The translations under genes were made by a program, and so were the position numbers. The notes under the pieces were generated by a model. The model did not search any database. It was given only the letters and a program-made list of their open reading frames with translations, and was not told the DNA's origin. From the NCBI GenBank assembly GCA_963794945.1, contig CAWCFT010000001.1, positions 160,001 through 224,000 of the forward strand: 64,000 nucleotides of DNA. The letters are read 5' to 3'. Below, piece by piece: positions 14,527 through 38,535 of the stretch. Numbering within the stretch: position 1 is the stretch's first letter; every line of letters starts with the position of its first letter. The DNA comes from Endomicrobiales bacterium (GTDB lineage Bacteria > Elusimicrobiota > Endomicrobiia > Endomicrobiales > CAWCFT01).

Positions 14527-14532
14527 AAACTT

Positions 14533-15382: not shown

Positions 15383-15399
15383 AGTAACGAAATCTGACA

Positions 15400-15487
15400 A
15401 TTCCCTCCGCTGGCATTACCCAGATCAGGTTCATAAGGTAATCCCGCTCTACGGGAACTCTCAGAGCCGTCCTACGGCCCTCCCTTT
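15400..15487 (-). ncRNA. TPP riboswitch (THI element)
   Basis: GGG...CTGAGA...ACC...ACCTGATCTGGGTAATGCCAGCGGAGGGAA directly upstream of thiM. Confidence 0.95.
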
Positions 15488-15541
15488 TTGACACAGCAAT
15501 TTTACCACAAAGCCCGGCGGTTGTCAAATTGAGTAATGAAA

Positions 15542-17782: not shown

Positions 17783-18232
17783 TTATATGCTGTAATCGAT
17801 AGTATCAGTAACTTGTAGCTTGCGCGACTTATCGGCTATGTCTTGGAATGTGGTTTTGTCTACTACATTGTTTACTGCATCCCTCGCCTCTTCAAAATAG
17901 CCCTTCAGCGCGCACTTCTTCTCGTAATTGCATTTGTTGTAACATGACTTGCTTACGCACGCTATTGAAGAAGTCGGGCCTTCCATGAGCCGTATTATCT
18001 CGCCCATGGTAATCTTTGAAGGCGGCTTGGAAAGGTAAACTCCGCCCTTAGGGCCTCTTACGGTCTTTACATAGCCAGCGCCCTTGAGTATGGTTATAAT
18101 CTGCTCAAGAAATTTAGTCGGGATATCCTGCCTTTTCGAAATATCCTTTATCTGGTCGATGCCCTTATCGTAGTTCAGCGCCAGGTCAAGTATTATTTTG
18201 AGCGCGTAGTCGCCTTTGAAAGTTATCTTCAT
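17783..18232 (-). CDS. Rrf2 family transcriptional regulator (CymR/IscR-like)
   Basis: FLEQI...VRGPKGG winged helix; Cys cluster ACVSKSCYNKCNYEKKC; C-terminus DYSI. Confidence 0.9.
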   Translation of the reverse strand: MKITFKGDYALKIILDLALNYDKGIDQIKDISKRQDIPTKFLEQIITILKGAGYVKTVRGPKGGVYLSKPPSKITMGEIIRLMEGPTSSIACVSKSCYNKCNYEKKCALKGYFEEARDAVNNVVDKTTFQDIADKSRKLQVTDTIDYSI

Positions 18233-20784: not shown

Positions 20785-21282
20785 TCATTTCAATATTTTC
20801 TGTAAATATACGACATCCAGCACTTTTCCGAATTTTTTTCCGCACCTGCACAAAACACCGACCTCTGAAAACCCAGAACTTCGGGCAAGCCGCAAACTAG
20901 CCTCATTATCAGCCGTAATGCGAAGTATTATTGTGAATAGATTCGTAGTTTTTGCAAGTTCAAGAATATGATCGTTCAATGCACGGCCTACCCCTTTTCT
21001 GCGGTTTTTGCAATCGATATATAACGCCAATTCCGCGGATATATCATAGGCCTTGCGGTCTGACCACCTATTGAGCGCGGCATAACCGACGACAACCCCG
21101 GATATTTCCGCAACTAAAACGGTAAAATCGCTTGTCCTGTTATTGAACCATGCCTGCCGGTTTTCGAGGCTCAGCGGTTCAGTATCGAATGTTGCCGTAG
21201 TTGTAAGAATCGCTTCGTTGTATATAGCGGTAATAGCAGGGACATCTTCGGCGCGCGCAAGCCTGATCTGTAATTGTTCCAT
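20785..21282 (-). CDS. GNAT N-acetyltransferase (YncA/Pat-like)
   Basis: IYNEAI...TATFD, RRKGVG, NEASL, GKKFG. Confidence 0.88.
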   Translation of the reverse strand: MEQLQIRLARAEDVPAITAIYNEAILTTTATFDTEPLSLENRQAWFNNRTSDFTVLVAEISGVVVGYAALNRWSDRKAYDISAELALYIDCKNRRKGVGRALNDHILELAKTTNLFTIILRITADNEASLRLARSSGFSEVGVLCRCGKKFGKVLDVVYLQKILK

Positions 21283-21286
21283 AATT

Positions 21287-22030
21287 TCAATTCTCCTTAT
21301 ATCGCAGGAATCGTTTCCCTGCATATTCGACAGCCATATCGCTTATTTTGCCGCATATCGCAAAAAGCACGATGCTGGCAATAATGATAGCGGGACGGCC
21401 CGTCATCTGCCCGTCATTCATAAGGAAACCCAAACCGCTGCTTGCGCCCATAAGCTCGGCTGCAACAACAAACATCCACCCAAGCCCCAGTCCGCTTCTA
21501 AGCCCCGTGATATAGGCTGGCATCGTAGCTGGCAAAACGACCCTTCGCACCAATTCAAAACCTTTCAGGTTAAAGACTTGCCCTACCTCGACCAGCTTTA
21601 CATCAAGATGCCGTATCCCGCTCATAAGATTCAAATAAACTGGAAAGAGGACGCCGACTGCAATAAGCGTAATTTTTGATGCTTCCTGTATCCCAAGCCA
21701 TAACAGGAACAGCGGCACCCATGCCATTGAAGGTATATTGCGCAAAGCCTGCAATAGTGGGTCGACAAGTTCCCGAAACCGCTTTGAACATCCCGACAAG
21801 ACACCAAGCGCTGTCGCCACTACGACCCCTATGGCAAAACCGGCGGCTACGCGGTAAACTGTAACACTTATGTGTTTGATCAATTCCCCTTGCTTCGCCA
21901 ATTCGGTTGCAGTCGCAAGAACGACCGTCGGCGCTGGAAGCCAATTTGGCGGAAAGTACCCGGCACGCGACAACAGTTCCCATATTACTATTAAAATGGT
22001 CGGTAAGATAAATCCGACCAATACGTTCAT
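21287..22030 (-). CDS. ssuC: Aliphatic sulfonate ABC permease
   Basis: LRNIPSMAWVPLFLLWLG, WMFVVAAELMGASSGLG. Confidence 0.85.
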   Translation of the reverse strand: MNVLVGFILPTILIVIWELLSRAGYFPPNWLPAPTVVLATATELAKQGELIKHISVTVYRVAAGFAIGVVVATALGVLSGCSKRFRELVDPLLQALRNIPSMAWVPLFLLWLGIQEASKITLIAVGVLFPVYLNLMSGIRHLDVKLVEVGQVFNLKGFELVRRVVLPATMPAYITGLRSGLGLGWMFVVAAELMGASSGLGFLMNDGQMTGRPAIIIASIVLFAICGKISDMAVEYAGKRFLRYKEN

Positions 22031-22998
22031 TTCACTGCCTCCCTGGCATATTTCGGCTCAATGAGTTCGTCTGCCGTCTTATTCACATCAATATTTTCGG
22101 CTATAACGGCGTTCTTTTTAAGAACATCGCCAGCCGCCGCTATGGCTTTTTTCTGCTCACTGCCGATGCGCGATTTCGTAATGTCCGTGCGTTCTCCAAG
22201 AACTTTGTCAGCGACCTTATCGCTTACTTTTGACTGAGCTATATAGATCGCTTTGAAGTCTGAAGGATTCGCGATGGCCCAAAGGCGCGCCTTTTCATAA
22301 GCTTTAAGAACACGCAGAATTATTTTTGGCCTATTCTTTATGACGTCTTCCCTGGTGTTAAGTACACCGTATGTATTCAAATTCACGTCGCGTTTAAAAA
22401 GCACTGCTCCGTTATCAACCTCAGCCTGGCCAAGAAGCGGGTCAAGCCCTGCCCATGCATCCACATCTCCGCGAAGGAAGGCATTCTTTCCATCCGCATG
22501 TTGAAGAGCGACGTATTCAATATCCTTGAGCGTCAGCCCCGCCTGATCAAGCGAACGTACAAGGAATACAAACGGATCCGTTCCTCTGGTTGCCGCAACC
22601 TTTTTTCCTTTCAAGTCAGCTACTGTTTTTATTCCGCTGCCAGCCCGAGTTACAAGAGCCGTCCATTCTGGTTTTGAATACACATATATCGATTTCACGG
22701 GATTGCCGTTTGCCCTTGAAATAAACGCGGCCACACCAGCCGTAGAACCAAAATCGATGCTTTTGCTATTTAAATATTCAAGCGCCTTATTACTGCCCTG
22801 GCTGAACACCCATTCCACCTTGATACCGTCTTTCGCCAGGTCTTCCTCTAGATAACCTTTCTCCTTCAAAACAAGGCTGACAGGATTATAGTACGCGTAA
22901 TCCAGCTTTATCGTATTGATATCTTCCTGCGCAAATAAGCTGATTGCCGAAACTGCCAGCACACTCAACACCAGTACTGCATTTTGTATTTTATTCAT
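22027..22998 (-). CDS. ssuA: Aliphatic sulfonate ABC substrate-binding protein
   Basis: Signal peptide; LDYAYYNP, GSNKALE, KPEWTAL, TRGTDP, AWAGLDP. Confidence 0.85.
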   Translation of the reverse strand: MNKIQNAVLVLSVLAVSAISLFAQEDINTIKLDYAYYNPVSLVLKEKGYLEEDLAKDGIKVEWVFSQGSNKALEYLNSKSIDFGSTAGVAAFISRANGNPVKSIYVYSKPEWTALVTRAGSGIKTVADLKGKKVAATRGTDPFVFLVRSLDQAGLTLKDIEYVALQHADGKNAFLRGDVDAWAGLDPLLGQAEVDNGAVLFKRDVNLNTYGVLNTREDVIKNRPKIILRVLKAYEKARLWAIANPSDFKAIYIAQSKVSDKVADKVLGERTDITKSRIGSEQKKAIAAAGDVLKKNAVIAENIDVNKTADELIEPKYAREAVK

Positions 22999-23097
22999 TT
23001 TAGTCTCCTGATGATATTTTTAATTTCAATCAAACCGATATATTTTCCCTGCTTTAGGCCACATTTGGCAACTTACATCGATAATTTCTTATATATA

Positions 23098-23949
23098 TCA
23101 TCTTTTTACCTCCTCAGAACCATGTTCTCTGAGATGTTCCCATTCGCCGTATGGAGCCGGTCTGCGATTGCTTTCGGGAATACCTGCCGGTAATTTGCCT
23201 TCTCTCAAATATCTTACATTGCTACGTTTATACAATACCCTGTCTTTGCCTATAGGGCATACTTTGGCGCATATCCCGCACGGCCAGCAGCTTTGTTTTC
23301 TCAAATCCTGATGCCTTTTTGTGCATCTATTTTTATTCATCTCCGCAATAACCCTGTCTTTATCCGGTTTAAACGCATCCACCGGGCATAATCTGGCGCA
23401 TAAACCGCATTTCGGGCACAACTCTTTCTTTATTACAGGCAGGCCTTCGATTTTGGCTTCTGTAAACACAAACACAAGCCGCACTCTTGGCCCAAATTCA
23501 GGTGTAAGCAGCATATTATTTAAACCAATTGTGCCCAGACCCGCGTATTTACCGGCATATACATGTCCGAATCCCGCGATGGGTTTTCGCCATAGTATTT
23601 CAAGGTTTCCATAACCGTCACGCGGCAAAAATATTGACGCAAACCCCTGATTGTTCAAAAATACTGAAAGCTGATATGCTGTCCTGTCAAGCAGTTGATT
23701 TGTCGTATTATATAGCTCCTGATAATTTATGGACGGCGTGCTTTCAATTATAGGCAAAAGAATAGGGACACCAAGAACAATAACGGTTTGAGCTTCAGTC
23801 CATACTGATTTCGGCCTGTATGGCTCCGGCACTTCGTTGAACTTGTCCCACCGCGAGACTGGCGCAAAACCTACCAGTTCTGCTCCAAGACGCTTAGCTT
23901 CTTTGATTACCTTCGATTTGATATTTTTAACAGCCATATTCTTCTCCAT
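23098..23949 (-). CDS. QueG/reductive-dehalogenase-like 2x[4Fe-4S] protein
   Basis: AGLGTIGLN...TPEFGPRVRL, CPKCGLCARLCP and CWPCGICAKVCP. Confidence 0.8.
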   Translation of the reverse strand: MEKNMAVKNIKSKVIKEAKRLGAELVGFAPVSRWDKFNEVPEPYRPKSVWTEAQTVIVLGVPILLPIIESTPSINYQELYNTTNQLLDRTAYQLSVFLNNQGFASIFLPRDGYGNLEILWRKPIAGFGHVYAGKYAGLGTIGLNNMLLTPEFGPRVRLVFVFTEAKIEGLPVIKKELCPKCGLCARLCPVDAFKPDKDRVIAEMNKNRCTKRHQDLRKQSCWPCGICAKVCPIGKDRVLYKRSNVRYLREGKLPAGIPESNRRPAPYGEWEHLREHGSEEVKR

Positions 23950-23950
23950 A

Positions 23951-24733
23951 TTATATTGTGTACTCTAACAATGTCTTAGCCTGAGCGAAAAACTCATTGA
24001 AAATGCGTTTTCTGTAATCAATAAAACCCGCACTGTGCCTATCTCTGGGCCGCGTAAGATCTATACTGTAAATATTTCGTATCGTACCAGGCCTGTTGGA
24101 CATAACTACTACGCGATCGCCAAGATATACTGCCTCATCTATATCATGCGTAACCAGAATAACTGTTGTTTCTTCAGCCGTACGAATACGCTGGATTTCT
24201 TCATGCATCTGTATTTTGGTAAAAGCATCCAAAGCGCCGAATGGTTCGTCCATAAGCAGAATTTTCGGGCGGTTCACTATCGCCCGGGCTATCGCTGCGC
24301 GCTGAGCCATGCCGCCCGAAAGCTGGTGCGGATAGGATCTCTCAAAACCCTTTAAACCGACCAACTTAATATGTTCCATTATCGAACTATTAGCTTCTGT
24401 ATTACGCTCAGGTAATCCAAATGCGATATTTTCTTCGATCGTAAGCCATGGGAATAACCTGTGCTCCTGAAATACAAATCCACGGTTTGTTCCCGGCCCT
24501 TGTATTGAGCGTCCGTCAATAAGCACTGATCCAGAATACCCATTCTCCAGACCTGCTATAATCCTGAGCAGAGTACTCTTCCCGCACCCGCTTCCGCCAA
24601 CAATGCATATGAACTCTCCCCGCCCGATTTCAAGATTCAAGGACCGAAGCGCGGGCAGAATTTGTTTACGAATGAAAAAATCTTTATTGAGTCCTGAAAT
24701 TGACAATACTGATTGAACTTCATTGTTGGACAT
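23951..24733 (-). CDS. ssuB: Sulfonate/nitrate-type ABC ATP-binding protein
   Basis: GGSGCGKST, LSGGMAQR, LMDEPFGALD. Confidence 0.88.
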   Translation of the reverse strand: MSNNEVQSVLSISGLNKDFFIRKQILPALRSLNLEIGRGEFICIVGGSGCGKSTLLRIIAGLENGYSGSVLIDGRSIQGPGTNRGFVFQEHRLFPWLTIEENIAFGLPERNTEANSSIMEHIKLVGLKGFERSYPHQLSGGMAQRAAIARAIVNRPKILLMDEPFGALDAFTKIQMHEEIQRIRTAEETTVILVTHDIDEAVYLGDRVVVMSNRPGTIRNIYSIDLTRPRDRHSAGFIDYRKRIFNEFFAQAKTLLEYTI

Positions 24734-24745
24734 ATATGACCACCC

Positions 24746-25570
24746 TCATATTTTCTTTTGCTTTGCTACAGGATTTAACAAATACTCTGCATTCTTATAA
24801 TATATTTTGTTTTTAGTTTCTTTACACGGCACTGCTCTTTCTATTATTGTTTTGATCGTTTCTGCTCGCGCCCACGGAAAATCCGTTCCAAAAAGAATTT
24901 TATCTTCGCCGTGCTTCGTGATTATTTCCAGCAGTGAAGAACTTTCTATTCCCTCGATAAACGCAGTATCAAAATACGCTCCTGTTCCCACGAGATATTT
25001 TAGAACCTCGTCCCACATTCTGTATCCGCCCAGGTGAGCGAAAACAAGCTTCAGCCCTTCTATTTTCGTAACTTCTTTAAGGCGCTCAGGAGTGGAACGT
25101 ATGTGGTCCGGGTACGGAAAATCAAAACCCGCGTGGAACGTTACGATTATACCGAACCGTTTGCACGCTTCGTATATCTCGTAAACATCCGGATCATCAG
25201 GATAGAATCTCTGGTATTCGGGATGAAGTTTTATTCCCTTAATCCCATTCTCAGCTAGAAACTGCAGCTCTTCCAAAACGTTGCCTACTTTTCTATATTC
25301 AGGATGCATTGCCCCGAAACAGATAACATCTCCCGGGCTGCCGGCATTAAATTCGATCATTTTCCTGTTTATGCCGCACACCTGCTCCTTCTTGGTAGCC
25401 ACCGGCAAATTCACGGAAATTGAAACCTCATCCTTATCCATAAATTCCCGCAAAGCGGCAACTGTACCGTCGCTGCATGCCTCAAACTTGCCTTCTTTCC
25501 ATAATGCGGCTAAGCTCTGCTGCGCTATCGCGTCAGGGAAATGATGAGTGTGAATATCAATAATTTTCAT
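24746..25570 (-). CDS. Amidohydrolase_2 family hydrolase
   Basis: DIHTH, GIKLHPEYQ, AHLGG, FGTDFPW; paralog of 9196-9987. Confidence 0.9.
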   Translation of the reverse strand: MKIIDIHTHHFPDAIAQQSLAALWKEGKFEACSDGTVAALREFMDKDEVSISVNLPVATKKEQVCGINRKMIEFNAGSPGDVICFGAMHPEYRKVGNVLEELQFLAENGIKGIKLHPEYQRFYPDDPDVYEIYEACKRFGIIVTFHAGFDFPYPDHIRSTPERLKEVTKIEGLKLVFAHLGGYRMWDEVLKYLVGTGAYFDTAFIEGIESSSLLEIITKHGEDKILFGTDFPWARAETIKTIIERAVPCKETKNKIYYKNAEYLLNPVAKQKKI

Positions 25571-25585
25571 ATCACTGCCAGTTCA

Positions 25586-26395
25586 TTATTTTACCGCGAA
25601 CGGCACAACAGCGCCTTTGTAACGCGTTTTAATGAAATCTCTGATCTCTTGTGAACACAGGACCGCTAGCAATTCTTTTACCGCGGGGCGTCCAGTGTCT
25701 CCCTCGCGCACGGCCACAATATTGGCATAATTTCTCGCAGCAACCGAATCAGCCTCTTCCCGCGCAAGAGCATCTTTGTAAGGAGAAAAACCCGCGTCTA
25801 TCGCATAATTGCCGTTGATCACGGCGGCTGATACACTGTCCAAAACCCGGGACAATTGCGCGGCTTCTATCTCAATAAGCGTCACTTTAACGAAATAACT
25901 CTGTATGTCCTTTATTGTCGCATTCAAATTATGTGAATCCTTTAGTTTTATGATGCCTTTATCCTGCAAAAGAATAAGCGCCCGCGCCTCATTGGTTACA
26001 TCGTTGGGTATGGCTATCTTATCGCCAGCACGCAATTCTTTTAGAGACTTTATCTTCTTTGAATATACCCCCAGCGGTTCGTAATGGACAGCTCCCGCGG
26101 AAACCAAAGAAGCGCTATTAGCCTCGTTAAAATTCTTCAGGTATGGGAGATGCTGAAAATAATTCGCGTCAAGGCTCTTGTTCTTAAGCGCTAAATTCGG
26201 TGTCATATAATCGGTAAATACTTTAATTTGAAGGTCTATGCCTTTCGCCTTTAACAAGATCTTTACCTTCTCAAGGATCTCGGCGTGCGGAACAGGTGTT
26301 GCTCCTATAACCAGCACTTCATCCCCTGCGTGTGCGCGAAACACGAATAGAAATAAACTCAATATCATCCAAACTAGATTAAGTTTAACTTTCAT
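25586..26395 (-). CDS. metQ: MetQ/NlpA family substrate-binding protein
   Basis: GATPVPHAEIL, ANYFQHLPYL, IPNDVTNEARAL, INGNYA. Confidence 0.9.
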   Translation of the reverse strand: MKVKLNLVWMILSLFLFVFRAHAGDEVLVIGATPVPHAEILEKVKILLKAKGIDLQIKVFTDYMTPNLALKNKSLDANYFQHLPYLKNFNEANSASLVSAGAVHYEPLGVYSKKIKSLKELRAGDKIAIPNDVTNEARALILLQDKGIIKLKDSHNLNATIKDIQSYFVKVTLIEIEAAQLSRVLDSVSAAVINGNYAIDAGFSPYKDALAREEADSVAARNYANIVAVREGDTGRPAVKELLAVLCSQEIRDFIKTRYKGAVVPFAVK

Positions 26396-26417: not shown

Positions 26418-27356
26418 TCATATCCATGCCGCCGGATCTACTTTCCCTTTAATATGCCATGTGCCGCGCACTTTTTTCCAGTATTCATCCCGTTCCAATT
26501 CTATAAGCGCGATATCATGGTCATTTAAATGCTTAAATCTGCCTTGTTTGCTTAAATAGTCTTTAACCGGAATAAATGCAGCCGGCCCTTTGTTTAAAAT
26601 GTATTCTCCGTCATAATATTCGCCTAAGATCCATAAACCTGAATCTACCGCTTCGCGGGCGACTTTAACGCATTCTTTTTCACTGAAGCCCCAGCCAGTC
26701 GGGCACGGAGACAGCACATGCAGGTATGAAGTTCCGTTAACCGAAGCGGCGCGCGCAACTTTATTCAGATAATCCTCGGGATACCCGATACTCGCGGTAG
26801 CGGCATAGTCGACACCGTTTGCCGCGGCTATTTCGAACATGTTCTTTTTGCCGGTTGCCGACCCCTTCATCTGAACGCCAACCGGAGAAGTTGTTGTTCT
26901 CGCACCCCTTGGAGTAGCCCCGCTTTTCTGGACACCGGTATTCATGTAGCCTTCATTGTCGTAACAGATATAGATTATCTTCTCGTGCCTGTCTATCGCG
27001 CCGGAAAGAGCCTGTATACCGATGTCGGCTGTCCCACCGTCGCCCGCAAAACCTACCACATGTATATTCTCAAGGCCCAAAGCCCTAGCTCCAGCGGCCA
27101 TACCTGAAAGCATTGAAGCCGTTCCGGCAAAAGTGGAGATAATGGAGTTCACGCCAAATGCCATTTGCGGATAAAGGAACGATACCGCTGAAATACAACC
27201 CGCCGGCACAGCCACAAGAGAACGGCTGCCAAGCACTTTCAAAGCAAGCCGGACAGCCACGCACCCGCCGCAGCCGGCGCAAGCCTTATGCCCTATAAAA
27301 TACTCTTCATCCGGTAATTTAGCCGGAGATACTCTGATATTCGTTAAGTCATTCAT
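26418..27356 (-). CDS. 2-oxoacid:ferredoxin oxidoreductase beta subunit
   Basis: GHKACAGCG, GDGG...YDNEGYMNTG TPP motif, SPCPTGW. Confidence 0.92.
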   Translation of the reverse strand: MNDLTNIRVSPAKLPDEEYFIGHKACAGCGGCVAVRLALKVLGSRSLVAVPAGCISAVSFLYPQMAFGVNSIISTFAGTASMLSGMAAGARALGLENIHVVGFAGDGGTADIGIQALSGAIDRHEKIIYICYDNEGYMNTGVQKSGATPRGARTTTSPVGVQMKGSATGKKNMFEIAAANGVDYAATASIGYPEDYLNKVARAASVNGTSYLHVLSPCPTGWGFSEKECVKVAREAVDSGLWILGEYYDGEYILNKGPAAFIPVKDYLSKQGRFKHLNDHDIALIELERDEYWKKVRGTWHIKGKVDPAAWI

Positions 27357-28541
27357 AATTTTTTTAGCCCAATAAAATGGATCCTTTCTTTGTCATTGCT
27401 GCTCTCCGCTGAACCCAATATCTTGAACATCTTTTCAATATCTTCTTTTGATATATCCCGGCCTCCCAGGCCTGCCACAAAATTATGCGAAAGTTTTACT
27501 GCCCCAGCGTCAAAGAGAGCGGATTTTACGTTAGTATACACTGTCCCCTCGTATCCGAAAGAAATGTCTTTTTCAAGCACTCCTATCGCTTTCGCGTTCA
27601 GGCACGCTGAAGAAACCTCTAACGCGGGGAACGGCCTGACATACCTAAGCCTTAAGAGACCTGCCTTTACGCCTTGCGACCGCAGTTTTTCAATAACCGG
27701 TTTAACCGTACCCGCAACGCTCCCTAAAGTTATCAATATATATTCAGCGTCTTCAGTTCTGTATGTTTCTATGAGACCAGGGTATTTACGTTTGAATATA
27801 TTTTCAAACCTGGCTTCTGTTTCCTTGATAACTCTAGCCGATGACAGCATTGCTTTATGCTGAAGATATTTAAATTCCGTGTTGTCCGTGGCCCCAGCCG
27901 TAAAACCAAGAGACTTTGGCGATTTAATATCCATTTTGTTCGTTGTAATGAACTTGGGCAGGAACTCATCAACTTCCTTCTGATCGGGAATATCAACGGC
28001 CTCATAAGTGTGCGTCAGCACAAAACCGTCAAGGTTCACCATGAACGGGGTAAGAACATCTGAATGTTCCGCTATCGCGAAGGCCTTTATCGTCAGGTCC
28101 AGCGCTTCCTGGGCGTCCGCGGCATAGGCCTGTATCCAGCCGCAGTCCAGCAGGGAAAGAGAATCACGCTGGTCGCCAAGTATATTCCAGGGCAGCGCCA
28201 CTGCACGGTTAGCATTCATCATTACTATCGGGAACCTGCCGCCGGAGGCATAATGCAGGCATTCGGCCATATATAATAGCCCTTGGGACGAAGTTGCCGT
28301 AAAAGTCCGCGCGCCAAGAGCAGATGCCCCTATAAGTGCGGAAAGCGCTGAATGTTCCGATTCCACATACATAAATTCGGTTTTTAACCTTCCATCCGAA
28401 ACCATCTCGGCAAGTCTTTCAACTACAGTTGTCTGAGGAGTAATTGGATATGCCGATATAACGTGCGGGCGCGACAAAAGCGCGCCTTCGGCTACCGCCT
28501 CGTTCCCGAGACATGAATCGCTTATTTATGTTTGCGCTCAT
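27353..28541 (-). CDS. 2-oxoacid:ferredoxin oxidoreductase alpha subunit (frameshift near 28510)
   Basis: GNEAVA, AYPITPQT, VESEHSA, TATSSQGL, GLGGRD. Confidence 0.92.
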
Positions 28542-28837
28542 TTCTTTTCTTTCTCCATTTTTATAGCACCAAATTTACATTCAACAGAACATATTCCGCA
28601 GCCTTTACAGAAGCGCAGGTCAACTCTTACTTTCCTGCCGTCTTTTTCAATGCTCGCATCCGGGCAAAACAGATAGCATCTCATGCAGCCTTTGCAAAGA
28701 TCGCTATCCAGCACCGGCCTCTCGGTTCTCCAGCCTGAACTATCCGAAACCAGATAACCCGACTGAACCACTATCCCTTTCGGATAATCTGACACAGCTG
28801 AATGCGGTTTATGTTTTCTTATTTCAGGCTTTGCCAT
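28538..28837 (-). CDS. 2-oxoacid:ferredoxin oxidoreductase delta subunit
   Basis: WRTERP; CKGCMRCYLFCP and CKGCGICSVEC. Confidence 0.92.
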   Translation of the reverse strand: MAKPEIRKHKPHSAVSDYPKGIVVQSGYLVSDSSGWRTERPVLDSDLCKGCMRCYLFCPDASIEKDGRKVRVDLRFCKGCGICSVECKFGAIKMEKEKK

Positions 28838-29365
28838 TTTTAAAAACGCTCCACGAGTATTTCAGCAGTTCAACATTTTTTCCCGCCTGTTTGATCCCAG
28901 AATCTTCTAAAATTGCCTTTGCCGCGCTATCTATGTCGACAATACCAGAAACGGCGATCAAAGCGCCAAGCAAAGCGGTGTTAACAATAGGTTTTCCAAA
29001 GAATTTAACACCGGCTTCGACCCCGTTAAAACTTATAACCCTGACCTCATCGCTTAGAACCGGGAACAGATCAAGCTCAGTGTTGACAATAAGAATGCCG
29101 CCTGGTTTTAACCCTCTTGCTACATTTTCATCCAGAATAGAATCGTCCAACACTACCACGTATTCACAGGATTTAATTTCACTGCGGTCTGTAACGGGTT
29201 GATTGTCGATGCGGGTAAAACCGACCATGGGCGCGCCCCTTCTTTCAGGTCCGAATGACGGGAAGGCAAGCGCGTGAAGGCCTTCGCGCACCGCGCCGCC
29301 CCCAATATCCTTGCGGCAGTAAAACATCCCTGCCCCCCTCTGCCGTGCCATCTGACCGAGATCAT
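28824..29365 (-). CDS. 2-oxoacid:ferredoxin oxidoreductase gamma subunit (frameshift near 29300)
   Basis: RWHGRGGQG, then FPSFGPERRGAP and NTALLGA in the next frame. Confidence 0.9.
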
Positions 29366-30519
29366 ATTTTTGCCTTTAATTTCAAAAGTTTTATGCCCGC
29401 CAGGTCGAGCGTCTCAAGTTTTTTCGCAAAATGGAACCTTACAAGATTTTTAACTGGCTCTTTAAAGAAGCTTGAGCCGGGTACACCTGCAACACCTATT
29501 TCCTTAACAAGCCACTCAGCGAACTTTACATCATCGTTCCAGCCCAGTGGGTTTATATCAACAAGAACATAGTAAGCTCCCTGAGGTTCGGTATATTTCA
29601 ACCCTGTTCCATCAAGATACCACAGGAACCTTTTCTTGAGGTTTGTATACTTCTCCCTTAATTCCTCATAATATGAAGCCGGCAGCTCAAGCCCTGGAAC
29701 AACAGCCTCCTGCAATGGCGCCGCGCTTCCACGGTTAAAAAATCGTGTACCTTTTTGGCGCCGTCAATTATTTCTTTTGGCGCTATGATATAACCCAAAC
29801 GCCAGCCGGTTATCGCGTAAGTTTTTGAAAGAGAACTACAGGAAATAGTTCTTTTGAACATATCAGGCAATGTTGAAATGTAATGGTGCCTGTGCCGGCT
29901 CGTAGATAATATGTTCATAAACTTCGTCGGTTATTACGAACGCGTCATACTCTTTGGCAAGGCCGGCGATAAATTCCAGTTCTTCTTTTGTAAACACCTT
30001 GCCTGTCGGGTTTGAAGGGTTGCACAGAATAAGGGCTTTGACACCCTGTTTGAAAGCCTGCCTCAACTCCTCTTTATCAAAACCAAAATTTGGCGGATAC
30101 AAAGGAACATAAACCGGTTCGGCCCCTGATAAGATAGCGTCCGCGGCATAGTTCTCGTAAAATGGCGAGAACACTATAACTTTATCTCCGGGGTTGCAGG
30201 CCGTCATCATCGCGGCCATCATGGCTTCCGTGCTGCCGCAGGTTACGACTATGTTTTCATCAGGGTCAATTTCGAGCCCCGTAAACTTATAATGTTTTTT
30301 AGCCAGCGCCTTTCTAAAATTCTCGGCGCCCCAGGTAACGGCATACTGATGAGGCCCTTTTCTTGCGCCTTTCCCCAGAGCCCGAACGATTACCTGCGGA
30401 GGATCAAAATCAGGGAATCCCTGTGAAAGATTTATAGCTCCATACCTGTTTGAGAGGCGCGTCATTGACCTTATCACTGATTCTGTAAATCCCTGGAGCC
30501 TCCTGCTTGTATTCGGCAT
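29362..30519 (-). CDS. Class I/II PLP aminotransferase (two frameshifts near 29890 and 29720)
   Basis: INLSQGFPDF, NPSNPTG, DEVYEH, SLSKTYAITGWRLGY, PQGAYY, VPGSSF. Confidence 0.92.
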
Positions 30520-30523
30520 ATTC

Positions 30524-31855
30524 CTATATCCCTCCGCCTAAATTATCCCTTGTATCGATCACTCGTTTCGCCTTGTGCGTCGCGCGGGGAATTTCACCGG
30601 AGTTAAGAATTTTGACTTCCTTGGGCCTTACACCAAGCCGGACCTTCACTTTTTGCAGGACTTCCTGCGCGAGCGATTCATCGGTTATTGAAGTACCAGG
30701 AGTACGTTCCACTTCAATATCAAATTTCGTAAGCCTGTCTTCCGTATATATGCGTATGCGGTATTCTCCGGTAAGCCCCTGAATCCCGCGGACAATGAAT
30801 TCAATATCGCTTGGGAACACATTGACGCCTGAAACGATGAACATATCGTCGATCCTTCCAATAACTTTGATGCGCACATGCGTCCTTCCGCACGCGCAGG
30901 GTGAACGATCAGCGGTTATAATGTCTCCTGTGCGAAAACGTATAAGGGGCCTGGCTTTCTTTCTTTGCGTGGTCAGTACCATTTCTCCTGGAGAGCCATC
31001 TTTAACTGGTTCCCCTGTTTTTATGTCCAACACCTCAAGATAAATATGGTCTTCCAAAAGATGCAGCCCGTCTTTTTGCGGGCACATACCGGCGCAAGCT
31101 CCAAATATATCCGAAATACCGTAAAAATCATACAGCTCGGCGTTCCAAAGCTCTTCAATAGCTTTTCTTGTTGCTGGAATAGAGCCGCCTGGCTCACCGG
31201 CAACTATTATACGGCGTATAGCAAGATCTTTTGCAGGGTCTATCCCGCTGTTGCGGGCAGTTTCACCCAGGTACCAGGCGTATGAAGGCGTGGTCCAAGT
31301 TACAGTCGGCTTGAATTCTTTCAATATATGAAGCAGCCTGTCGGACGGAATGCTGCCAGCCCACAGACACAAAGCTCCGAGATTTTGCGCCCCTATGACA
31401 TCCGGCCCGCCGACAAAAAGCGTGAAATTGAGCGCGTGCACATAACGATCGTGCGGCCTGACACCCGCGGCCCAGAAAAGGCGCGACTGGGCGTCCTGGA
31501 ACTCATCAAAATCCTGTTTAGTGAATGGACTTAAGGTCGGCACACCTGTGGAACCGCTTGAAGCCGATACGAACACAACATCACGCTCGGGAACAGCTGT
31601 CAGATCACCTAAGATAGGATGGGCTATTTGCCTGTCGCGTTCTATCTTTTTATTCGTAAAAGGAAGTTTTCGCAGGTCGCTTAGTTTCTTGAAGTCTCCC
31701 GGTTCGAATCCGATGTCTTTAAAAGTGCTTTTGTAGTACGGCGAATTCTCATAAGCGAATGTTATGTGTTCCTTTAATTGCTTAAGCTGAAGCTCCTCAA
31801 GCTTTTTCACCGGCAGTGTTTCAATTTCTTCGTTCCAAAACTTTTTTTCACTCAT
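30524..31855 (-). CDS. Phenylacetate-CoA ligase family (PaaK-like) acyl-CoA ligase
   Basis: SSGSTG, GEPG, YGISD, RFRTGD, GRIDDM...GVNVFP; C-terminus GGGI. Confidence 0.9.
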   Translation of the reverse strand: MSEKKFWNEEIETLPVKKLEELQLKQLKEHITFAYENSPYYKSTFKDIGFEPGDFKKLSDLRKLPFTNKKIERDRQIAHPILGDLTAVPERDVVFVSASSGSTGVPTLSPFTKQDFDEFQDAQSRLFWAAGVRPHDRYVHALNFTLFVGGPDVIGAQNLGALCLWAGSIPSDRLLHILKEFKPTVTWTTPSYAWYLGETARNSGIDPAKDLAIRRIIVAGEPGGSIPATRKAIEELWNAELYDFYGISDIFGACAGMCPQKDGLHLLEDHIYLEVLDIKTGEPVKDGSPGEMVLTTQRKKARPLIRFRTGDIITADRSPCACGRTHVRIKVIGRIDDMFIVSGVNVFPSDIEFIVRGIQGLTGEYRIRIYTEDRLTKFDIEVERTPGTSITDESLAQEVLQKVKVRLGVRPKEVKILNSGEIPRATHKAKRVIDTRDNLGGGI

Positions 31856-31871
31856 CTTATTCCTCTCTTAT

Positions 31872-32534
31872 TTAAGCTTTATCCGCTTTTTTAGCGCTAT
31901 AATCGCCTAATGTCTGAATTATCTGTACCAGTATTATCAATACTATGACCGTTGCGGACATCACATCCATCTGGTAACGATAATATCCATATCGAATGGC
32001 AAGGTCTCCTACTCCGCCTCCACCCACGATACCCGCCATGCCAGAGTAGCCGATAAGGCTTATCGCGGTAACAGTAAAACCGCGTATTAAGCCAGGTAAA
32101 GCCTCCACTAACAGCACTTGTGTAATTATTTGCGGTATGGAAGCCCCCATAGCTGTTGCGGCTTCAATAACTCCTTTGTCAACTTCTCTCAAAGACGCCT
32201 CAGCTATCCTTGCGTAAAACACAACCGCGGCCACAAACAAAGATACTGATGCCGCCAAAGGCCCGATAGTCGTTTTAACTATCTTCTGCGTTAAAGGCAG
32301 CAATATCACAAGAAGTATGACAAATGGGATCGAACGTATGATATTTACTAAAACCCCGCCTACAGCATTAAATATCTTATTTTCCAGGAAAAGCCCCTTG
32401 TCCGTTACAAAAAGTAAAAGGCCCAGCGGAACACCGAGGATCAAAGCCAAGGAAAGGGAGATACCAACCATTTGAAATGTCTCCCAGAAAGCCTTACCCA
32501 GGTCAGGAAGCAGGCTTAATATCTGTTTGCTCAT
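31872..32534 (-). CDS. metI: Methionine ABC permease
   Basis: RSIPFVIL, EAA motif, GYSGMAGIVGGGGVGDLAIRYGY. Confidence 0.93.
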   Translation of the reverse strand: MSKQILSLLPDLGKAFWETFQMVGISLSLALILGVPLGLLLFVTDKGLFLENKIFNAVGGVLVNIIRSIPFVILLVILLPLTQKIVKTTIGPLAASVSLFVAAVVFYARIAEASLREVDKGVIEAATAMGASIPQIITQVLLVEALPGLIRGFTVTAISLIGYSGMAGIVGGGGVGDLAIRYGYYRYQMDVMSATVIVLIILVQIIQTLGDYSAKKADKA

Positions 32535-33534
32535 AAATAACCTCCGTGCTGGCTGTGTTCTCTTTTAAGTGTTTAACTAACTTTGTGACTTCTGAATTCT
32601 CTCCCTTAAGATTAACAAGAAGAATACCTATAGGATGACCGTTTATATATTCTATCCGTCCGTGCAATATATTTATATCGACTGGGAACGTACGAATAGC
32701 GTTTGAAATGACAGGATTAAGCGCCGAAGGCCCGCGGTAAAGTACTTTTACAAGGCTTCCTTTGACAGCGCCTAGTATCCCATCAGGTATTTCAAGATTT
32801 AGTGAATTTCTGACCAACTGTTTTGTTATCTCATGCTGCGGATTCGAGAATATACTGTAGACATCATTTAACTCCACAACTTCTCCTCCTCTCATTACAG
32901 CCACCCGGCTGCATATACTTTTTATCACATCCATCTCATGAGAGATCAGAAGAACCGTTATTCCATACCTTCGATTAATATCGCGTAGAAGCTCCAAGAT
33001 CGATCTTGTTGTCTCAAGGTCTAAAGCCGATGTAGGCTCATCGCAAAGAAGAAGATGCGGGTCGTTGGCAAGCGCACGCGCTATTCCAACGCGCTGTTTC
33101 TGCCCTCCGGAAAGCTGGCCAGGATACGCGTGGGCCTTGTCTGACAAAGCGACTATTTCAAGCAGTTCCGGGACTTTTTTTGATATTTCCTTCGCGCTTT
33201 TACCGGATATTTTCATGGGAAAAGCAATATTATCGTAAACCGTTTTCGTATGTACCAGGTTATAATGCTGGAATATCATGCCAATCTTCTGCCGCGCTCC
33301 TCTTAAAGACTTTTTGTCAAGAGAAGTTATATCGATCCCTTCAACATTCACCTTTCCGCTGCCCGGCTTTTCAAGCAGGTTTACCGTGCGCAGGAGAGTG
33401 CTTTTGCCGGCGCCGCTTGTGCCGACTATGCCGAATATTTCACCCTTATTAACATCGAAAGAAACATTTCTTACGGCATGAACCTCGGCATCTTTTGTAT
33501 TGAAAGTGATAGATACATTCTCAAATTTGATCAT
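32503..33534 (-). CDS. metN: Methionine ABC ATP-binding protein
   Basis: GTSGAGKST, LSGGQKQRV, CDEPTSALD, C-terminal NIL domain. Confidence 0.93.
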   Translation of the reverse strand: MIKFENVSITFNTKDAEVHAVRNVSFDVNKGEIFGIVGTSGAGKSTLLRTVNLLEKPGSGKVNVEGIDITSLDKKSLRGARQKIGMIFQHYNLVHTKTVYDNIAFPMKISGKSAKEISKKVPELLEIVALSDKAHAYPGQLSGGQKQRVGIARALANDPHLLLCDEPTSALDLETTRSILELLRDINRRYGITVLLISHEMDVIKSICSRVAVMRGGEVVELNDVYSIFSNPQHEITKQLVRNSLNLEIPDGILGAVKGSLVKVLYRGPSALNPVISNAIRTFPVDINILHGRIEYINGHPIGILLVNLKGENSEVTKLVKHLKENTASTEVIYEQTDIKPAS

Positions 33535-33553
33535 ATGTCCTTGTACACTGCGT

Positions 33554-33589
33554 GCTGCAGGGAGGCAGGGTAATATACCTCCCTGCAGC
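33554..33589. other. Perfect 12 bp intergenic stem-loop between metQ and metN
   Basis: GCTGCAGGGAGG / CCTCCCTGCAGC with no U-tract; probably an mRNA-stabilising hairpin. Confidence 0.6.
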
Positions 33590-33605
33590 TTACGTTGTGC
33601 CTTTT

Positions 33606-34427
33606 TTATTTACCGTGTTTATCTTTAAGCCATTGAGGTATGGCAAAATCCTTGAAAACGTTTTTTGGGTCATAAATAACGTTTTCAAATTCCTTTGACT
33701 CAATCGCTTTCTTGATATCCTTTGTGAACTTGCTATCCAGGTCTTCGGTACGCACTGCGATGACAATAAGATACTTCTCTTCCAATGTCTCCCTTGCTAT
33801 GGCCGTCGGATATATTCCGGCGGAAATCGCGTAATTGCCGTTTACAACCGCGAAATCCACACTGTCAACCGTCCTGGGTATTTGGGCGGCTTCAACAGGC
33901 TGTATTTTCAGGTTTTTCGGATTTCCGACAACGTCCTTCTCAGATGCCTTTGTCGCATCAATAGATGGATTGATCGTTATTAATCCCAATGCCTGAAGAT
34001 ACCTCAAAGCCCTTGCAAGGTTCGAAGGGTCATTTGCGATAGTCACAGTAGAACCATCCGTAATTTCAGCGATTGACTTGAATTTCTTCGAGTAAATACC
34101 AAGCGCCGCCGTTGGTATTGATATCACGGGAGATATTTTAAGCTTCCTGTCTGCCGCGAATTTATCAAGATACACCTTGTGCTGGAAGGCATTTACATCA
34201 ATTGATTTATTGTCAAGCGCAATATTTGGCTGGACATAGTCGCTGAACTCTTTGACCTCAACTTTATACCCTTTCTTTTCAAGAGCCGGTATAACGCCGA
34301 GTTTTACAATATCACCGTATGGCCCGGGAGCTACGCCGAATACTATTTCTTTCTTTGGTTCGGCGAAGGCTCCCGATATGAATACTACCGTTGACAATAA
34401 TAACGCTGTCAGTATTTTAATCTTCAT
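33606..34427 (-). CDS. metQ: MetQ/NlpA family substrate-binding protein
   Basis: FSDYVQPN, NAFQH, ANDPSNLARAL, VNGNYA. Confidence 0.9.
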   Translation of the reverse strand: MKIKILTALLLSTVVFISGAFAEPKKEIVFGVAPGPYGDIVKLGVIPALEKKGYKVEVKEFSDYVQPNIALDNKSIDVNAFQHKVYLDKFAADRKLKISPVISIPTAALGIYSKKFKSIAEITDGSTVTIANDPSNLARALRYLQALGLITINPSIDATKASEKDVVGNPKNLKIQPVEAAQIPRTVDSVDFAVVNGNYAISAGIYPTAIARETLEEKYLIVIAVRTEDLDSKFTKDIKKAIESKEFENVIYDPKNVFKDFAIPQWLKDKHGK

Positions 34428-34455: not shown

Positions 34456-35619
34456 TTAAAACTTATATATCACCGAAGCCTGGTAAATCTCGCCGTTCGA
34501 GGTTATTGAACCCTTGTATCCTGTGCTTGTGCTTGAATACTCAAAAGCTACAGTCGCGGCTGAGGTCAACTTATAGAACAATGATCCAAATGCCCTTCTG
34601 TTAAATGTCCTTCCGCCGGCGTTCAGGTTATCGCTGTTGGGATCATCCTCTCCATACCCGAAGTTTACATTAACTGCAGGCGTTATATTAGTAACAACCT
34701 GGCCCCATCCTCCTTTAGCTTCTATTGACTGTTTAAGGGTTGTATTAACACCCTGGTAAACACCTCCGTAAAATGCCGCCAAATCAGCTCCCTGCCAAAC
34801 CGTTCCTTGAAGGGAAACTATATTCGTAACGGGAAGTATGATACCGCCTATGAGAGACCGCGTATCGTAGTCTTGAAGGACTGGATTTGCGGCGGTAATG
34901 ATATTTGATTCAGTACCTGAATGCCCCGAAACACTTAGTCTTGCCGGTTTGCTGGTCCATAATTTCGCATCAGCAAACAAAGCTCCTTCTAATGTAGGTT
35001 GTCCGGAATCCGTGCCGCCATCCTGAACTCCGCCGGCATCAATTACCTGGCCTATTGTGCGGCCGGCTAACCTTCCGGTGACTGTAACACCACCTTCTTT
35101 GACGACTTGTGTTACGCGGACCTGAGGCCTACGGTTGTAAAGATTGCCGGTTGAACCTAAAAACGCGCCGTCAACCGTTATTGGGTTTACAGTGACGAAC
35201 GCGTCCCAATCCTGGCCGGCGCGGAGTGAAAACCCGCTGGGGTTTGCAAAATCCACATAAGCCAGCCGTATACGCGGCGCGACTGCATTTTCATTAGTTC
35301 CTCCAAAAGCAGATGTGTAAAAATCCAGTTCTAATTTTCCTGTCGTTTTCCAGTCATCACTTGACGGCCCGCTAAGATCAATGCCAAACCTTGATTCCCT
35401 TGCCGTAATATCCAGTGAACCCTGCGTTTGGCCGGCAACTGTGGGTAAATTATAGAAATTCAGGTCTCCGACAAATGTACGCTGGGTAGCCTCGATAACA
35501 TCCAGTTTTACATAACCATACAGCTTAGCCGTGACCGGTGCGGCATCTTCAGCAAAAACTGCATAAGGTACTGCTAAAAGCGCAACAAGCGTAGTTACTT
35601 TTACAATAATCTTCTTCAT
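34456..35619 (-). CDS. Outer-membrane porin (DcaP-like)
   Basis: Signal peptide, LYGYVKLD, ARESRFG, PRIRLAY, C-terminal YKF. Confidence 0.75.
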   Translation of the reverse strand: MKKIIVKVTTLVALLAVPYAVFAEDAAPVTAKLYGYVKLDVIEATQRTFVGDLNFYNLPTVAGQTQGSLDITARESRFGIDLSGPSSDDWKTTGKLELDFYTSAFGGTNENAVAPRIRLAYVDFANPSGFSLRAGQDWDAFVTVNPITVDGAFLGSTGNLYNRRPQVRVTQVVKEGGVTVTGRLAGRTIGQVIDAGGVQDGGTDSGQPTLEGALFADAKLWTSKPARLSVSGHSGTESNIITAANPVLQDYDTRSLIGGIILPVTNIVSLQGTVWQGADLAAFYGGVYQGVNTTLKQSIEAKGGWGQVVTNITPAVNVNFGYGEDDPNSDNLNAGGRTFNRRAFGSLFYKLTSAATVAFEYSSTSTGYKGSITSNGEIYQASVIYKF

Positions 35620-36224: not shown

Positions 36225-37157
36225 TTATATCTGTTCCTGGAAAAGCCAGGTTGATAGGTACCTCTCGCCAGTATCGGGAAGAAGTACGACGATGGTCTTA
36301 CCTTTATTCTCCGGCCTTTTTGCGACTTCAAGTGCCGCCCAAAAAGCCGCGCCGCTCGAAATGCCGACAAGTATTCCTTCTTCTTTGGCAAGTTTTCTGG
36401 AGGTCGACCCTGCGTCTTCATTGGCGACCTGTATTATCTCATCAACGATCTTGGAGTTAAACACTCCAGGCACGAAGCCCGCTCCAATGCCCTGTATCTT
36501 GTGAGGGCCGGGTTTTCCTCCTGAGAGCACCGGCGAATCCTTGGGCTCTACGGCGATTATCTTAACACGGGGATTGCGCTTCTTCAGTACTTCCCCGACA
36601 CCGGTTATCGTCCCGCCGGTTCCAACGCCGCCGATGAATATATCGACTTTGCCGTCGGTATCGTTCCATATCTCTTCGGCCGTCGTTTTGCGGTGTATCT
36701 CCGGGTTAGCCGGGTTGTTGAACTGCTGAGGGATAAAACTGTTGGGCGTGGTTTTCGCGAGTTCTTCCGCCTTTGCCACGGCTCCGCTCATCCCCTTGGC
36801 GCCTTCGGTCAGGACTAGTTCGGCTCCGAGTATTTTCAGGAGCTGCCGGCGCTCAATGCTCATGGTCTCAGGCATGGTCAAGATCAGCTTGTAACCTTTA
36901 GCGGCGGCAACGAACGCGAGCGCGATGCCGGTATTGCCGCTGGTCGGCTCAATTATAACCGAATCATTTTTAAGCACGCCTCTCTTTTCAGCATCTTCGA
37001 TAAGAGCCACGCCGAGCCTGTCCTTGACGCTTGAAAGCGGGTTGAACGATTCAAGCTTCGCAAGAATCACCGCTCCAACCCCCTTCGTTAACTTGTTTAT
37101 TTGGACAAGCGGTGTATTGCCGATCGTCTTTGTTATATCTTTATAGATTTTTGACAT
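36225..37157 (-). CDS. cysK: Cysteine synthase A (O-acetylserine sulfhydrylase)
   Basis: [47 protein letters not shown]. Confidence 0.97.

Positions 37158-37204: not shown

Positions 37205-38535
<1,331 letters not shown>

Follow-up and report, generated by a model that had tools for sequence, protein, structure and literature searches.

A sulfur-linked acyl-CoA ligase, aminotransferase and 2-oxoacid:ferredoxin oxidoreductase operon, probably a methionine-scavenging module

We analyzed a 64,000-nucleotide stretch of DNA from an Endomicrobiales bacterium (the window; positions 160,001 to 224,000 of contig CAWCFT010000001.1, assembly GCA_963794945.1), whose minus strand carries, at 26418..34427, a compact block of genes for a MetNIQ-type importer, a PaaK-like AMP-forming acyl-CoA ligase, an aminotransferase and a four-subunit 2-oxoacid:ferredoxin oxidoreductase (OFOR). 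The block is probably a methionine and sulfur-amino-acid scavenging module, which rebuilds methionine from a scavenged sulfur-containing acid. We lean toward a route in which a thio-acid, most likely 3-methylthiopropionate (MTPA), would be converted to its CoA ester, then to 2-oxo-4-methylthiobutyrate and finally to methionine; for this route we infer the substrate, the reductive direction and the feeding of the ligase by the importer. Gene content and order, conservation, horizontal spread, linkage to methionine and sulfur genes, and the control of the operon by S-adenosylmethionine (SAM) riboswitches in Clostridia are computed results.

Conservation, sulfur linkage and control of the operon

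An earlier note on this DNA had read the genes as metQ-metN-metI-ligase-aminotransferase-gamma-delta-alpha-beta followed by a second metQ, and our annotation recovers the same order, on the minus strand and with identical boundaries. The junctions within the block are overlaps or gaps of 4-71 nt, with ATGA overlaps at aminotransferase/gamma, delta/alpha and alpha/beta. The block lies within a sulfur island of ~22 kb (16054-38496) in which every gene is on the minus strand. Pfam and NCBIfam profile searches of 16054-38496 returned no aromatic-catabolism genes and no paa or IOR neighbors, and the annotation of the flanks bears out the note's description of a sulfur cluster free of such genes.

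A scan with one genome per species yielded at least 402 relatives of the ligase, and the window proteins were compared by tblastn (E <= 1e-10, coverage >= 50%; identity floors of >= 45% for OFOR alpha and >= 55% for the aminotransferase) with the loci of the best 80 of these 402. Fully flanked loci, with at least 5.5 kb on each side of the ligase, numbered 42. The OFOR is present at 52 of the 80 loci (34 of the 42 fully flanked) and the aminotransferase at 50 (31 of 42), while 30 of the 42 have both, with ligase, OFOR and aminotransferase forming an adjacent, co-directional module. MetQNI was found at 28 of the 80 loci (18 of 42) and a Ssu-like ABC system at 25 (22 of 42), so that 38 of the 42 carry one or the other; cystathionine beta-synthase (CBS), cystathionine gamma-lyase (CGL), cysK or O-acetylhomoserine sulfhydrylase (OAHS) occurs at 17 loci, all of them fully flanked. 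The commonest order across phyla is ligase, aminotransferase, gamma, delta, alpha, beta. The same genes are still linked, in other orders, in Fibrobacteres (L044, L066) and in Thiobaca (L085), which argues that the linkage is functional rather than historical.

As a control we used 16 loci of PaaK-like paralogs (34-38% identical, ±9 kb) from the window's own genome and its relatives, genomes that are kin and not independent; none of the 16 contains any of the module partners. Since the block recurs at 30-34 of the 42 related loci and at none of these controls, its arrangement is far from chance. Linkage of homologous operons to sulfur genes had been set beforehand as a test of the earlier note's proposal, and the proposal passed it, with a MetQNI or Ssu-like importer at 38 of 42 loci and CBS, CGL, cysK or OAHS at 17 of 42, against 0 of 16 controls.

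The ligase homologs remain 64-74% identical across at least nine phyla. The best matches in protein collections (67-74% identical; Bacillota, Pseudomonadota, Chlorobi and Kiritimatiellia among their phyla) are named phenylacetate-CoA ligase or CoF synthetase. The 40 genomes examined from the window's order hold a single ortholog, in G004 (89%); all their other matches are <= 40% identical, which is also the upper bound for the ligase's paralogs. In a tree, 81 ligases form one clade (SH-aLRT 100), set off from eight paralogs by a branch of 3.4 substitutions per site. Phyla are intermixed within this clade, the three Elusimicrobiota sequences falling in three places and Methanotrichaceae nesting among bacteria; on the evidence of this tree, the ligase clade is distinct and widely spread by horizontal transfer.

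To which side of methionine the module belongs is indicated by its regulation in Clostridia. Rfam models place SAM-I riboswitches directly upstream of the block at five of 17 Bacillota loci, all Clostridia, with scores of 81-85 bits against a gathering score of 44. In three Clostridium genomes, three tandem aptamers precede metQ (L049 6742-7322, L048 6738-7322, L036 6724-7302), each of them complete, scoring 81-85 bits and spaced ~235 nt apart; tandem triplets of SAM riboswitches are uncommon and suggest that the operon responds in a very steep, digital manner. A single SAM-I riboswitch lies immediately before the ligase gene in L038 (ligase-aminotransferase-OFOR) and L091 (ligase-aminotransferase-OFOR-metNIQ). 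Control by SAM riboswitches means that the operon is on when SAM is scarce, which argues for methionine supply rather than breakdown, and this placement is the strongest single evidence supporting a biosynthetic direction. The earlier note had left the direction as "to or from methionine"; the riboswitches at these five loci speak for "to," whereas reductive carboxylation itself, the identity of the acid and the choice between thioether and thiol we can only infer.

The operon also occurs in extended forms. A DUF1847 protein, without a relative in the PDB, directly precedes the ligase at 21 loci; MtaA/CmuA-family methyltransferases occur at 21 loci, and a corrinoid protein with a RACo-type activator at 14. 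In the variant operon (L057 1980-12174, L042 6448-9981 and 19 further loci), two MtaA/CmuA-family methyltransferases, the corrinoid protein, RACo and DUF1847 are followed by the ligase, and those corrinoid-variant loci that were annotated in detail also have a SsuA-family ABC importer. In Chlorobi, an extra SAM-dependent methyltransferase lies between the ligase and the aminotransferase. The corrinoid/methyltransferase form suggests that methylated sulfur compounds serve as inputs where it occurs. A further variant is found in Uliginosibacterium (L026 3658-9308): upstream of the ligase, metQ, metN and metI are interspersed with genes for an FAD-linked oxidase, an FMN-dependent 2-hydroxy-acid dehydrogenase and a creatininase-family hydrolase. 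The oxidase/dehydrogenase pair, which lies ahead of metQ, would suit conversion of D-/L-2-hydroxy-4-methylthiobutyrate to the keto acid.

Enzyme families and the proposed route to methionine

The ligase (30524-31855, minus strand, as for all genes of the island) has the short adenylate-forming architecture, AMP-binding plus AMP-binding_C_2 in Pfam, over ~440 aa, and aligns over its full length with PDB 4R1L, 2Y4O and 2Y27 at E 1e-64 to 1e-80. Its nearest structures are CoA ligases (4R1L, 2Y4O and 6HDW, the last acting on a small aliphatic acid, 2-hydroxyisobutyrate), and the AMP-forming type favors acid activation. The ligase thus shares its fold and domain pair with PaaK (2Y4O, 2Y27) and the Bacteroides PaaK-like protein 4R1L; however, it reaches less than half of the cut-offs of the PaaK equivalogs (TIGR02155, 291 bits vs. 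646; NF041878, 331 vs. 700), has no paa/IOR neighbors and forms its own clade. A separate PaaK paralog of the window's genome adjoins an IOR alpha gene on contig C16, a pair of the aryl-acid type that stands apart from the block.

The aminotransferase (29362-30519; class I/II) finds its top PDB matches in 2O0R, 1U08 (YbdL) and the KAT I/III structures at E 1e-62 to 1e-68, and its structural neighbors are YbdL, the kynurenine aminotransferases/glutamine transaminase K and a Thermus glutamine aminotransferase. Methionine and its keto acid are substrates of the YbdL/KAT/glutamine transaminase K group. Among named NCBIfam families, methionine aminotransferase (PRK09082) comes nearest, with scores of 319, 344 and 335 bits for intact orthologs (cut-off 420); two unnamed aminotransferase models outscore PRK09082 on these orthologs, also below their own cut-offs.

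For the OFOR, the gamma (28824-29365; TIGR02175, 132 bits vs. 81) and delta subunits (28538-28837; two [4Fe-4S] sites, Pfam Fer4; TIGR02179, 83.5 bits vs. 60) pass the cut-offs of the pyruvate/2-ketoisovalerate subfamily. The alpha subunit (27353-28541; Pfam POR_N and PFOR_II) scores 451 bits against PorA_Arch as the truncated ORF of the window and 477 as the intact L042 ortholog (cut-off 550), and the TPP-binding beta subunit (26418-27356; Pfam TPP_enzyme_C) scores 325 and 334 bits, respectively, against PorB (cut-off 405). Neither VOR model is reached: alpha gives 342-384 bits against PRK08366 (cut-off 646) and beta 323-345 against PRK11864 (cut-off 405), the window's own beta subunit scoring 323 in this VOR-beta subfamily. 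The structure nearest to alpha is 9BT4, and as far as the alignment shows, the block's enzyme shares with this PorABCD the subunit set, the gamma-delta-alpha-beta order, the YPITP motif and the pyruvate-site Arg and Ile. Of the residues that line the pyruvate site in PFOR, the Thr of YPITP, the Arg and the Ile are conserved, while one adjacent Leu is Trp. In contrast to PorABCD, the block's OFOR falls under the PorA/PorB cut-offs, is always embedded with the ligase, and accompanies a NifJ-type PFOR, itself above its curated cut-off, in 30 of 37 module-bearing genomes, in which the module OFOR is therefore an extra enzyme. The other OFOR-type genes of the window's genome are a pair on contig C4 (27-29% identical), a POR_N gene on C13 and the IOR alpha gene beside the second PaaK on C16.

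The importer genes comprise an NlpA-type binding protein, a NIL-domain ATPase and a MetI-type permease in one operon, namely MetQ1 (33606-34427; Pfam NlpA/Lipoprotein_9, 8e-74), MetN (32503-33534; ABC_tran plus C-terminal NIL; TIGR02314, 376 bits vs. 500) and MetI (31872-32534; BPD_transp_1; NF008049, 191 vs. 212), with the MetQ/NlpA-family lipoprotein MetQ2 (25586-26395; Lipoprotein_9, 1.5e-87) at the far end of the block. All three components lie below curated NCBIfam cut-offs (MetQ models, 150-170 bits vs. 229-374), which makes the ligand specificity of the importer only putative. MetQ1 and MetQ2, 36% identical, are the sole MetQ-family proteins of the genome and are served by a single MetNI pair; MetQ2 may bind a ligand other than that of MetQ1, e.g., an acid instead of an amino acid. 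An outer-membrane protein that is weakly DcaP-like, of the dicarboxylate porin family (34456-35619; Pfam DcaP, E 1.1e-6, 28.4 bits vs. 27), is encoded 28 nt upstream of metQ1; L013 (79% identity) and L044 (31%) have a homolog at the same place.

We propose that the porin and the MetNIQ-type importer with its two binding proteins would take up methionine and methionine-like acids, a task that would fall to the Ssu-like importer in other lineages. The PaaK-like ligase would convert a sulfur-bearing carboxylic acid, most likely MTPA, with ATP to its CoA thioester; the four-subunit OFOR would join the thioester with CO2, at the expense of reduced ferredoxin, to yield 2-oxo-4-methylthiobutyrate; and the YbdL/glutamine-transaminase-K-type aminotransferase would convert this keto acid to L-methionine. 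By the same steps 3-mercaptopropionate could yield homocysteine, from which CBS and CGL would hand the sulfur to cysteine. According to one report, 2-oxo-4-methylthiobutyrate is oxidized by OFORs in vitro (PMC13768988). MetH- and MetE-type domains are both absent from five of 38 module genomes, three of which have the riboswitch-controlled operon, and these genomes, although mostly draft or binned, are suggestive of methionine rather than homocysteine as the product there.

Methanococci and rumen anaerobes convert aryl and branched-chain acids to amino acids by an acyl-CoA ligase, IOR or VOR, and an aminotransferase. The three-enzyme logic (AMP-forming PaaK-family ligase, ferredoxin-dependent 2-oxoacid oxidoreductase, aminotransferase) is the same in the block, while the differences are its four-subunit POR/VOR-type OFOR of an unnamed clade, the separate clade of its ligase, its methionine and sulfur partner genes, and its SAM riboswitch in Clostridia. 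DmdB, the methylmercaptopropionate-CoA ligase of dimethylsulfoniopropionate (DMSP) demethylation, is a long acyl-CoA synthetase that feeds a beta-oxidation-like release of methanethiol. It shares the proposed substrate and first step, MTPA to its CoA ester, but the annotated flanks of the block hold no DmdC/DmdD-like genes.

Two further systems share the keto acid. The end-step of methionine salvage is carried out by aminotransferases of the YbdL, MtnE and glutamine-transaminase-K types, and the block's aminotransferase belongs to the same structural group, with the keto acid as the presumed common intermediate. In canonical salvage, as outlined in a 2018 review, the pathway ends with the conversion of 2-oxo-4-methylthiobutyrate to methionine by an aminotransferase (PMC6302742); there the keto acid arises from methylthioadenosine by dioxygen chemistry, whereas in the block it would arise by CO2 fixation onto an acyl-CoA. 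The review also describes the fate of methylthiopropionate as seldom studied. In Thermococcales, as one study describes it, methionine is fermented by a transaminase, a 2-keto acid ferredoxin oxidoreductase and an ADP-forming acyl-CoA synthetase to 3-methylthiopropionate (PMC3942289). The intermediates (2-oxo-4-methylthiobutyrate, methylthiopropionyl-CoA and MTPA) and the OFOR chemistry are those proposed here; however, that pathway, in the account given there, is oxidative and energy-conserving with ADP-forming synthetases, while the AMP-forming ligase and biosynthetic regulation of the block imply the reverse direction.

Points against the route and alternative readings

Several observations weigh against a route from MTPA to methionine. 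No curated NCBIfam cut-off is reached by the ligase, the aminotransferase, OFOR alpha or OFOR beta, so the names of their families do not point to a substrate. In the window's assembly, three of the six enzyme genes have a broken reading frame. SAM riboswitches were found in Clostridia only: Rfam returned none at seven loci of other phyla and none at the window's operon, the window scan giving only a tRNA and a TPP riboswitch, both away from the operon, although the island does encode an Rrf2-family regulator. The window's genome, at 86% completeness, shows no NifJ-type PFOR, which leaves room for a housekeeping pyruvate role of the OFOR in this organism. MetH-type domains occur in 33 of 38 module genomes and in the window's genome, which makes homocysteine an equally usable product in those genomes; and G050, without MetH/MetE matches but with MetA and OAHS-like genes, weakens the argument drawn from genomes that lack a methionine synthase. 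The main caveat is that at eight of the 42 fully flanked loci the ligase stands among sulfur genes with no OFOR in its flanks. Five of these genomes were searched whole and contain no ortholog-level OFOR beta (best match 44%, vs. 54-73% at linked loci). OFOR-less loci thus indicate that the ligase product has another fate in some lineages, where the activated acid is probably the same and the fate of the CoA ester different.

The presence of MetH bears on a thiol sub-variant of the proposed route, in which 3-mercaptopropionate would pass through its CoA ester and 2-oxo-4-mercaptobutyrate to homocysteine, from which MetH would make methionine and CBS/CGL cysteine. The window, L026, L044, L054, L066 and L078 have both CBS and CGL within the block or next to it; L037 has only CBS, its locus breaking off within that gene. 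The corrinoid protein, two MtaA/CmuA-family methyltransferases and RACo of the variant operon could, moreover, demethylate a methylthio acid to the thiol and remethylate homocysteine. The evidence on the ligase and the OFOR would suit a thioether as well as a thiol; in the three riboswitch-controlled Clostridia genomes without a MetH/MetE domain homocysteine would be a dead end, and we consider the thiol form unlikely, if still worth entertaining.

The OFOR-less loci bear on a second possibility, that an organosulfur acid is activated toward another end, e.g., C-S cleavage giving methanethiol or sulfide for OAHS and CysK, with the OFOR and aminotransferase as accessories. In the ligase tree, such loci turn up in several different subclades. 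In the sulfur-starvation cluster of L077 (3940-13752, Competibacteraceae) a SrpI-type encapsulin, a cysteine desulfurase, MetY, MetX, the ligase and a variant radical-SAM protein stand with a PNPOx-like protein, a GNAT, a Ssu-like importer and an FMN reductase, and this genome has no OFOR other than a NifJ-type PFOR; in L031 the ligase stands with a Ssu-like ABC system and CBS. L059, L065 and L077 have OAHS as the gene just upstream of the ligase, as C-S cleavage would have it. Nevertheless, the OFOR follows the ligase in one operon at 34 of 42 loci, with an order kept across phyla, and no acyl-CoA dehydrogenase/hydratase set of the DmdC/DmdD type was seen in the annotated flanks; we regard C-S cleavage as slightly less likely than the thiol variant.

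We give still less credence to a neighborhood effect, in which the OFOR would act, as such enzymes ordinarily do, on pyruvate or 2-oxoisovalerate, with the ligase and aminotransferase serving branched-chain, aromatic or small aliphatic acids, e.g., propionate to 2-oxobutyrate. The best scores of OFOR alpha and beta are indeed to POR and VOR models, and the nearest structure is a POR (9BT4); the window's genome yielded no NifJ-type PFOR; and 2-oxobutyrate is a product of CGL. However, every POR and VOR equivalog cut-off is missed, importer linkage at 38 of 42 loci contrasts with 0 of 16 controls, SAM riboswitches lie directly before the ligase, and most module genomes already have a NifJ-type PFOR.

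Lowest of all we place the oxidative direction, in which methionine would be transaminated and oxidatively decarboxylated to methylthiopropionyl-CoA, with the ligase reversed to gain ATP. MetNIQ would then deliver methionine, and OFORs are reversible. Yet SAM riboswitches turn the operon on at low SAM, the opposite of a catabolic need, and the block is accompanied by the biosynthetic genes MetX/MetW, OAHS and CysK. AMP-forming ligases normally run toward the thioester. Pyrococcus does ferment methionine in the oxidative direction, but with ADP-forming synthetases (PMC3942289). Other conversions (sulfoacetate to cysteate, 2-(methylthio)acetate to S-methylcysteine and 3-hydroxypropionate to homoserine) were considered and set aside, though each may still apply; the last would suit the MetX and OAHS neighbors but misfits the methionine importer and the sulfur-starvation contexts.

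Assembly, island genes and biological meaning

The disrupted reading frames of the window, which the earlier note had overlooked, affect the aminotransferase twice and OFOR gamma and alpha once each. The aminotransferase is split into three ORFs, the first and third in the same frame and the stretch ~29720-29895 shifted between two compensating frameshifts near 29895 and 29724; together the three pieces match the intact 385-aa G004 ortholog from one end to the other (residues 1-208, 209-277 and 269-385). OFOR gamma, whose ATG at 29365 overlaps the aminotransferase stop, lacks one base in a GCG repeat near 29295, as seen in the sequence and by tblastn with the L050 gamma subunit. OFOR alpha, whose ATG at 28541 overlaps the delta stop, has a one-base insertion near 28509, likewise seen in the sequence and by tblastn.

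These frameshifts are probably assembly errors, judging from several features of the assembly. Other genes are split as well: secA (G000 C1:348508-350821) lies in two frames with two more stops, and CstA (window 6294-8208), an IS110 transposase (11860-12934) and OAHS (37205-38496) are also interrupted. A 151-nt contig from an independent metagenome run (X3) matches 29640-29789 with one substitution and an extra G behind 29724, which together restore the aminotransferase frame and give the peptide of the G004 ortholog. The nonsynonymous divergence (dN) of the aminotransferase pieces from G004 (0.058 and 0.099) is no higher than that of the ligase (0.074) or MetN (0.097), with dN the only comparable measure since synonymous divergence (dS) is saturated (1.5-2.9) or undefined. 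The genome, moreover, consists of only 19 contigs for 2.9 Mb at 86% completeness. The aminotransferase, gamma and OAHS indels fall within GC-rich GCGC/GGCG surroundings, unlike the alpha indel near 28509, and with the genome-wide split genes they look like a systematic consensus error of a long-read assembly. Profile models of rpoB/rpoC found no match in this 86%-complete genome and were uninformative on assembly quality, secA being used instead. A survey of sequencing runs found three DNA runs carrying window words (5-7% of the words sampled) and no RNA run; the three covered one of the four operon frameshift sites, leaving those near 29895, 29295 and 28509 without reads, and at these three sites recent decay of the block in this strain is an alternative.

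Upstream of the block and the porin gene, the island encodes CysK, a cysteine synthase (36225-37157; TIGR01139, 480 bits vs. 351), and an OAHS of the MetY type (37205-38496), which is in two ORFs with a frameshift near 38203; Pfam Cys_Met_Meta_PP matches both pieces, at profile positions 2-69 and 85-380, and TIGR01326 gives 525 bits on the larger. Directly after metQ2 lies an Amidohydro_2-family protein (24746-25570; Pfam 1.3e-21), for which we found no NCBIfam match and no PDB relative. It has a paralog in the window (9196-9987, plus strand; 49% identical), and homologs lie between the ligase and the aminotransferase in L050 and beside the block in L020 and L037.

A Ssu-like ABC importer follows (21287-24733; ssuB ATPase 23951-24733, SsuA-family binding protein 22027-22998, ssuC permease 21287-22030), and its genes enclose that of a 283-aa Fe-S protein (23098-23949), residues 133-238 of which align with the cobalamin/Fe-S C-terminal half of reductive dehalogenases and QueG (epoxyqueuosine reductase). 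The same four genes are grouped in L037; in L033, ssuB (60%) adjoins the Fe-S gene (49%), with ssuA and ssuC ~1.5-4 kb away on the other strand. The Fe-S protein may thus be a candidate for anaerobic processing of a sulfonate or other organosulfur compound. Next is a GNAT acetyltransferase (20785-21324), nearest to the ArsN1/phosphinothricin N-acetyltransferase families (NF040503, 132 bits vs. 170); by sequence it resembles acetyltransferases acting on methionine and glutamate analogues, which fits methionine-type compounds.

The island continues with CBS (19395-20771; TIGR01137, 550 bits vs. 510), a cystathionine gamma-lyase/synthase family enzyme, here CGL (18260-19405; PRK07811, 537 vs. 513), the Rrf2-family regulator (17783-18232; Pfam Rrf2), an Abhydrolase_1-fold protein (16637-17773; Pfam Abhydrolase_1), read as MetX (homoserine O-acetyltransferase) from its position beside MetW, and MetW itself (16054-16647; Pfam MetW). 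Beyond the island, the TPP riboswitch (15385-15496, minus strand; 66 bits) lies upstream of hydroxyethylthiazole kinase and thiamine-phosphate synthase genes (13894-15174); the kinase ORF begins at profile position 47 and may be shortened by a further indel. Elsewhere in the window, a single 4144-codon ORF (51479-63913, minus strand) without a Pfam match at E <= 1e-6 adjoins a gene for a glycogen-debranching-type protein of 1198 aa (47769-51365).

Methionine is not known to be made other than by homocysteine methylation or methylthioadenosine recycling. Our literature search found no description of the block or of an MTPA-to-methionine route, though older or paywalled work could be missed. A bolder proposal, which we put forward as a serious possibility rather than as our expectation, is that the block encodes a dedicated "2-oxo-4-methylthiobutyrate synthase" pathway, horizontally spread and SAM-repressed, by which MTPA, CO2 and reduced ferredoxin would yield methionine in anaerobes of at least nine phyla, including Methanothrix, bypassing homocysteine and methionine synthase. 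In the variant operon, the corrinoid protein, the two MtaA-type methyltransferases, RACo and DUF1847 would open this pathway to methylated sulfur compounds.

If this is true, the pathway would add a fourth class of amino acids to those made by reductive carboxylation, after the aromatic, the branched-chain and the 2-oxobutyrate-derived ones. A very conserved, misnamed "phenylacetate-CoA ligase" of at least 402 species-level genomes would gain a function, and the automatic "pyruvate synthase" annotation of the linked OFOR would be corrected. Methionine and DMSP breakdown would have a new sink for one of its major products, organic sulfur would have a new point of entry in anoxic settings (soils, peat, sediments and guts), and the pathway could account for the survival of some apparent methionine auxotrophs.

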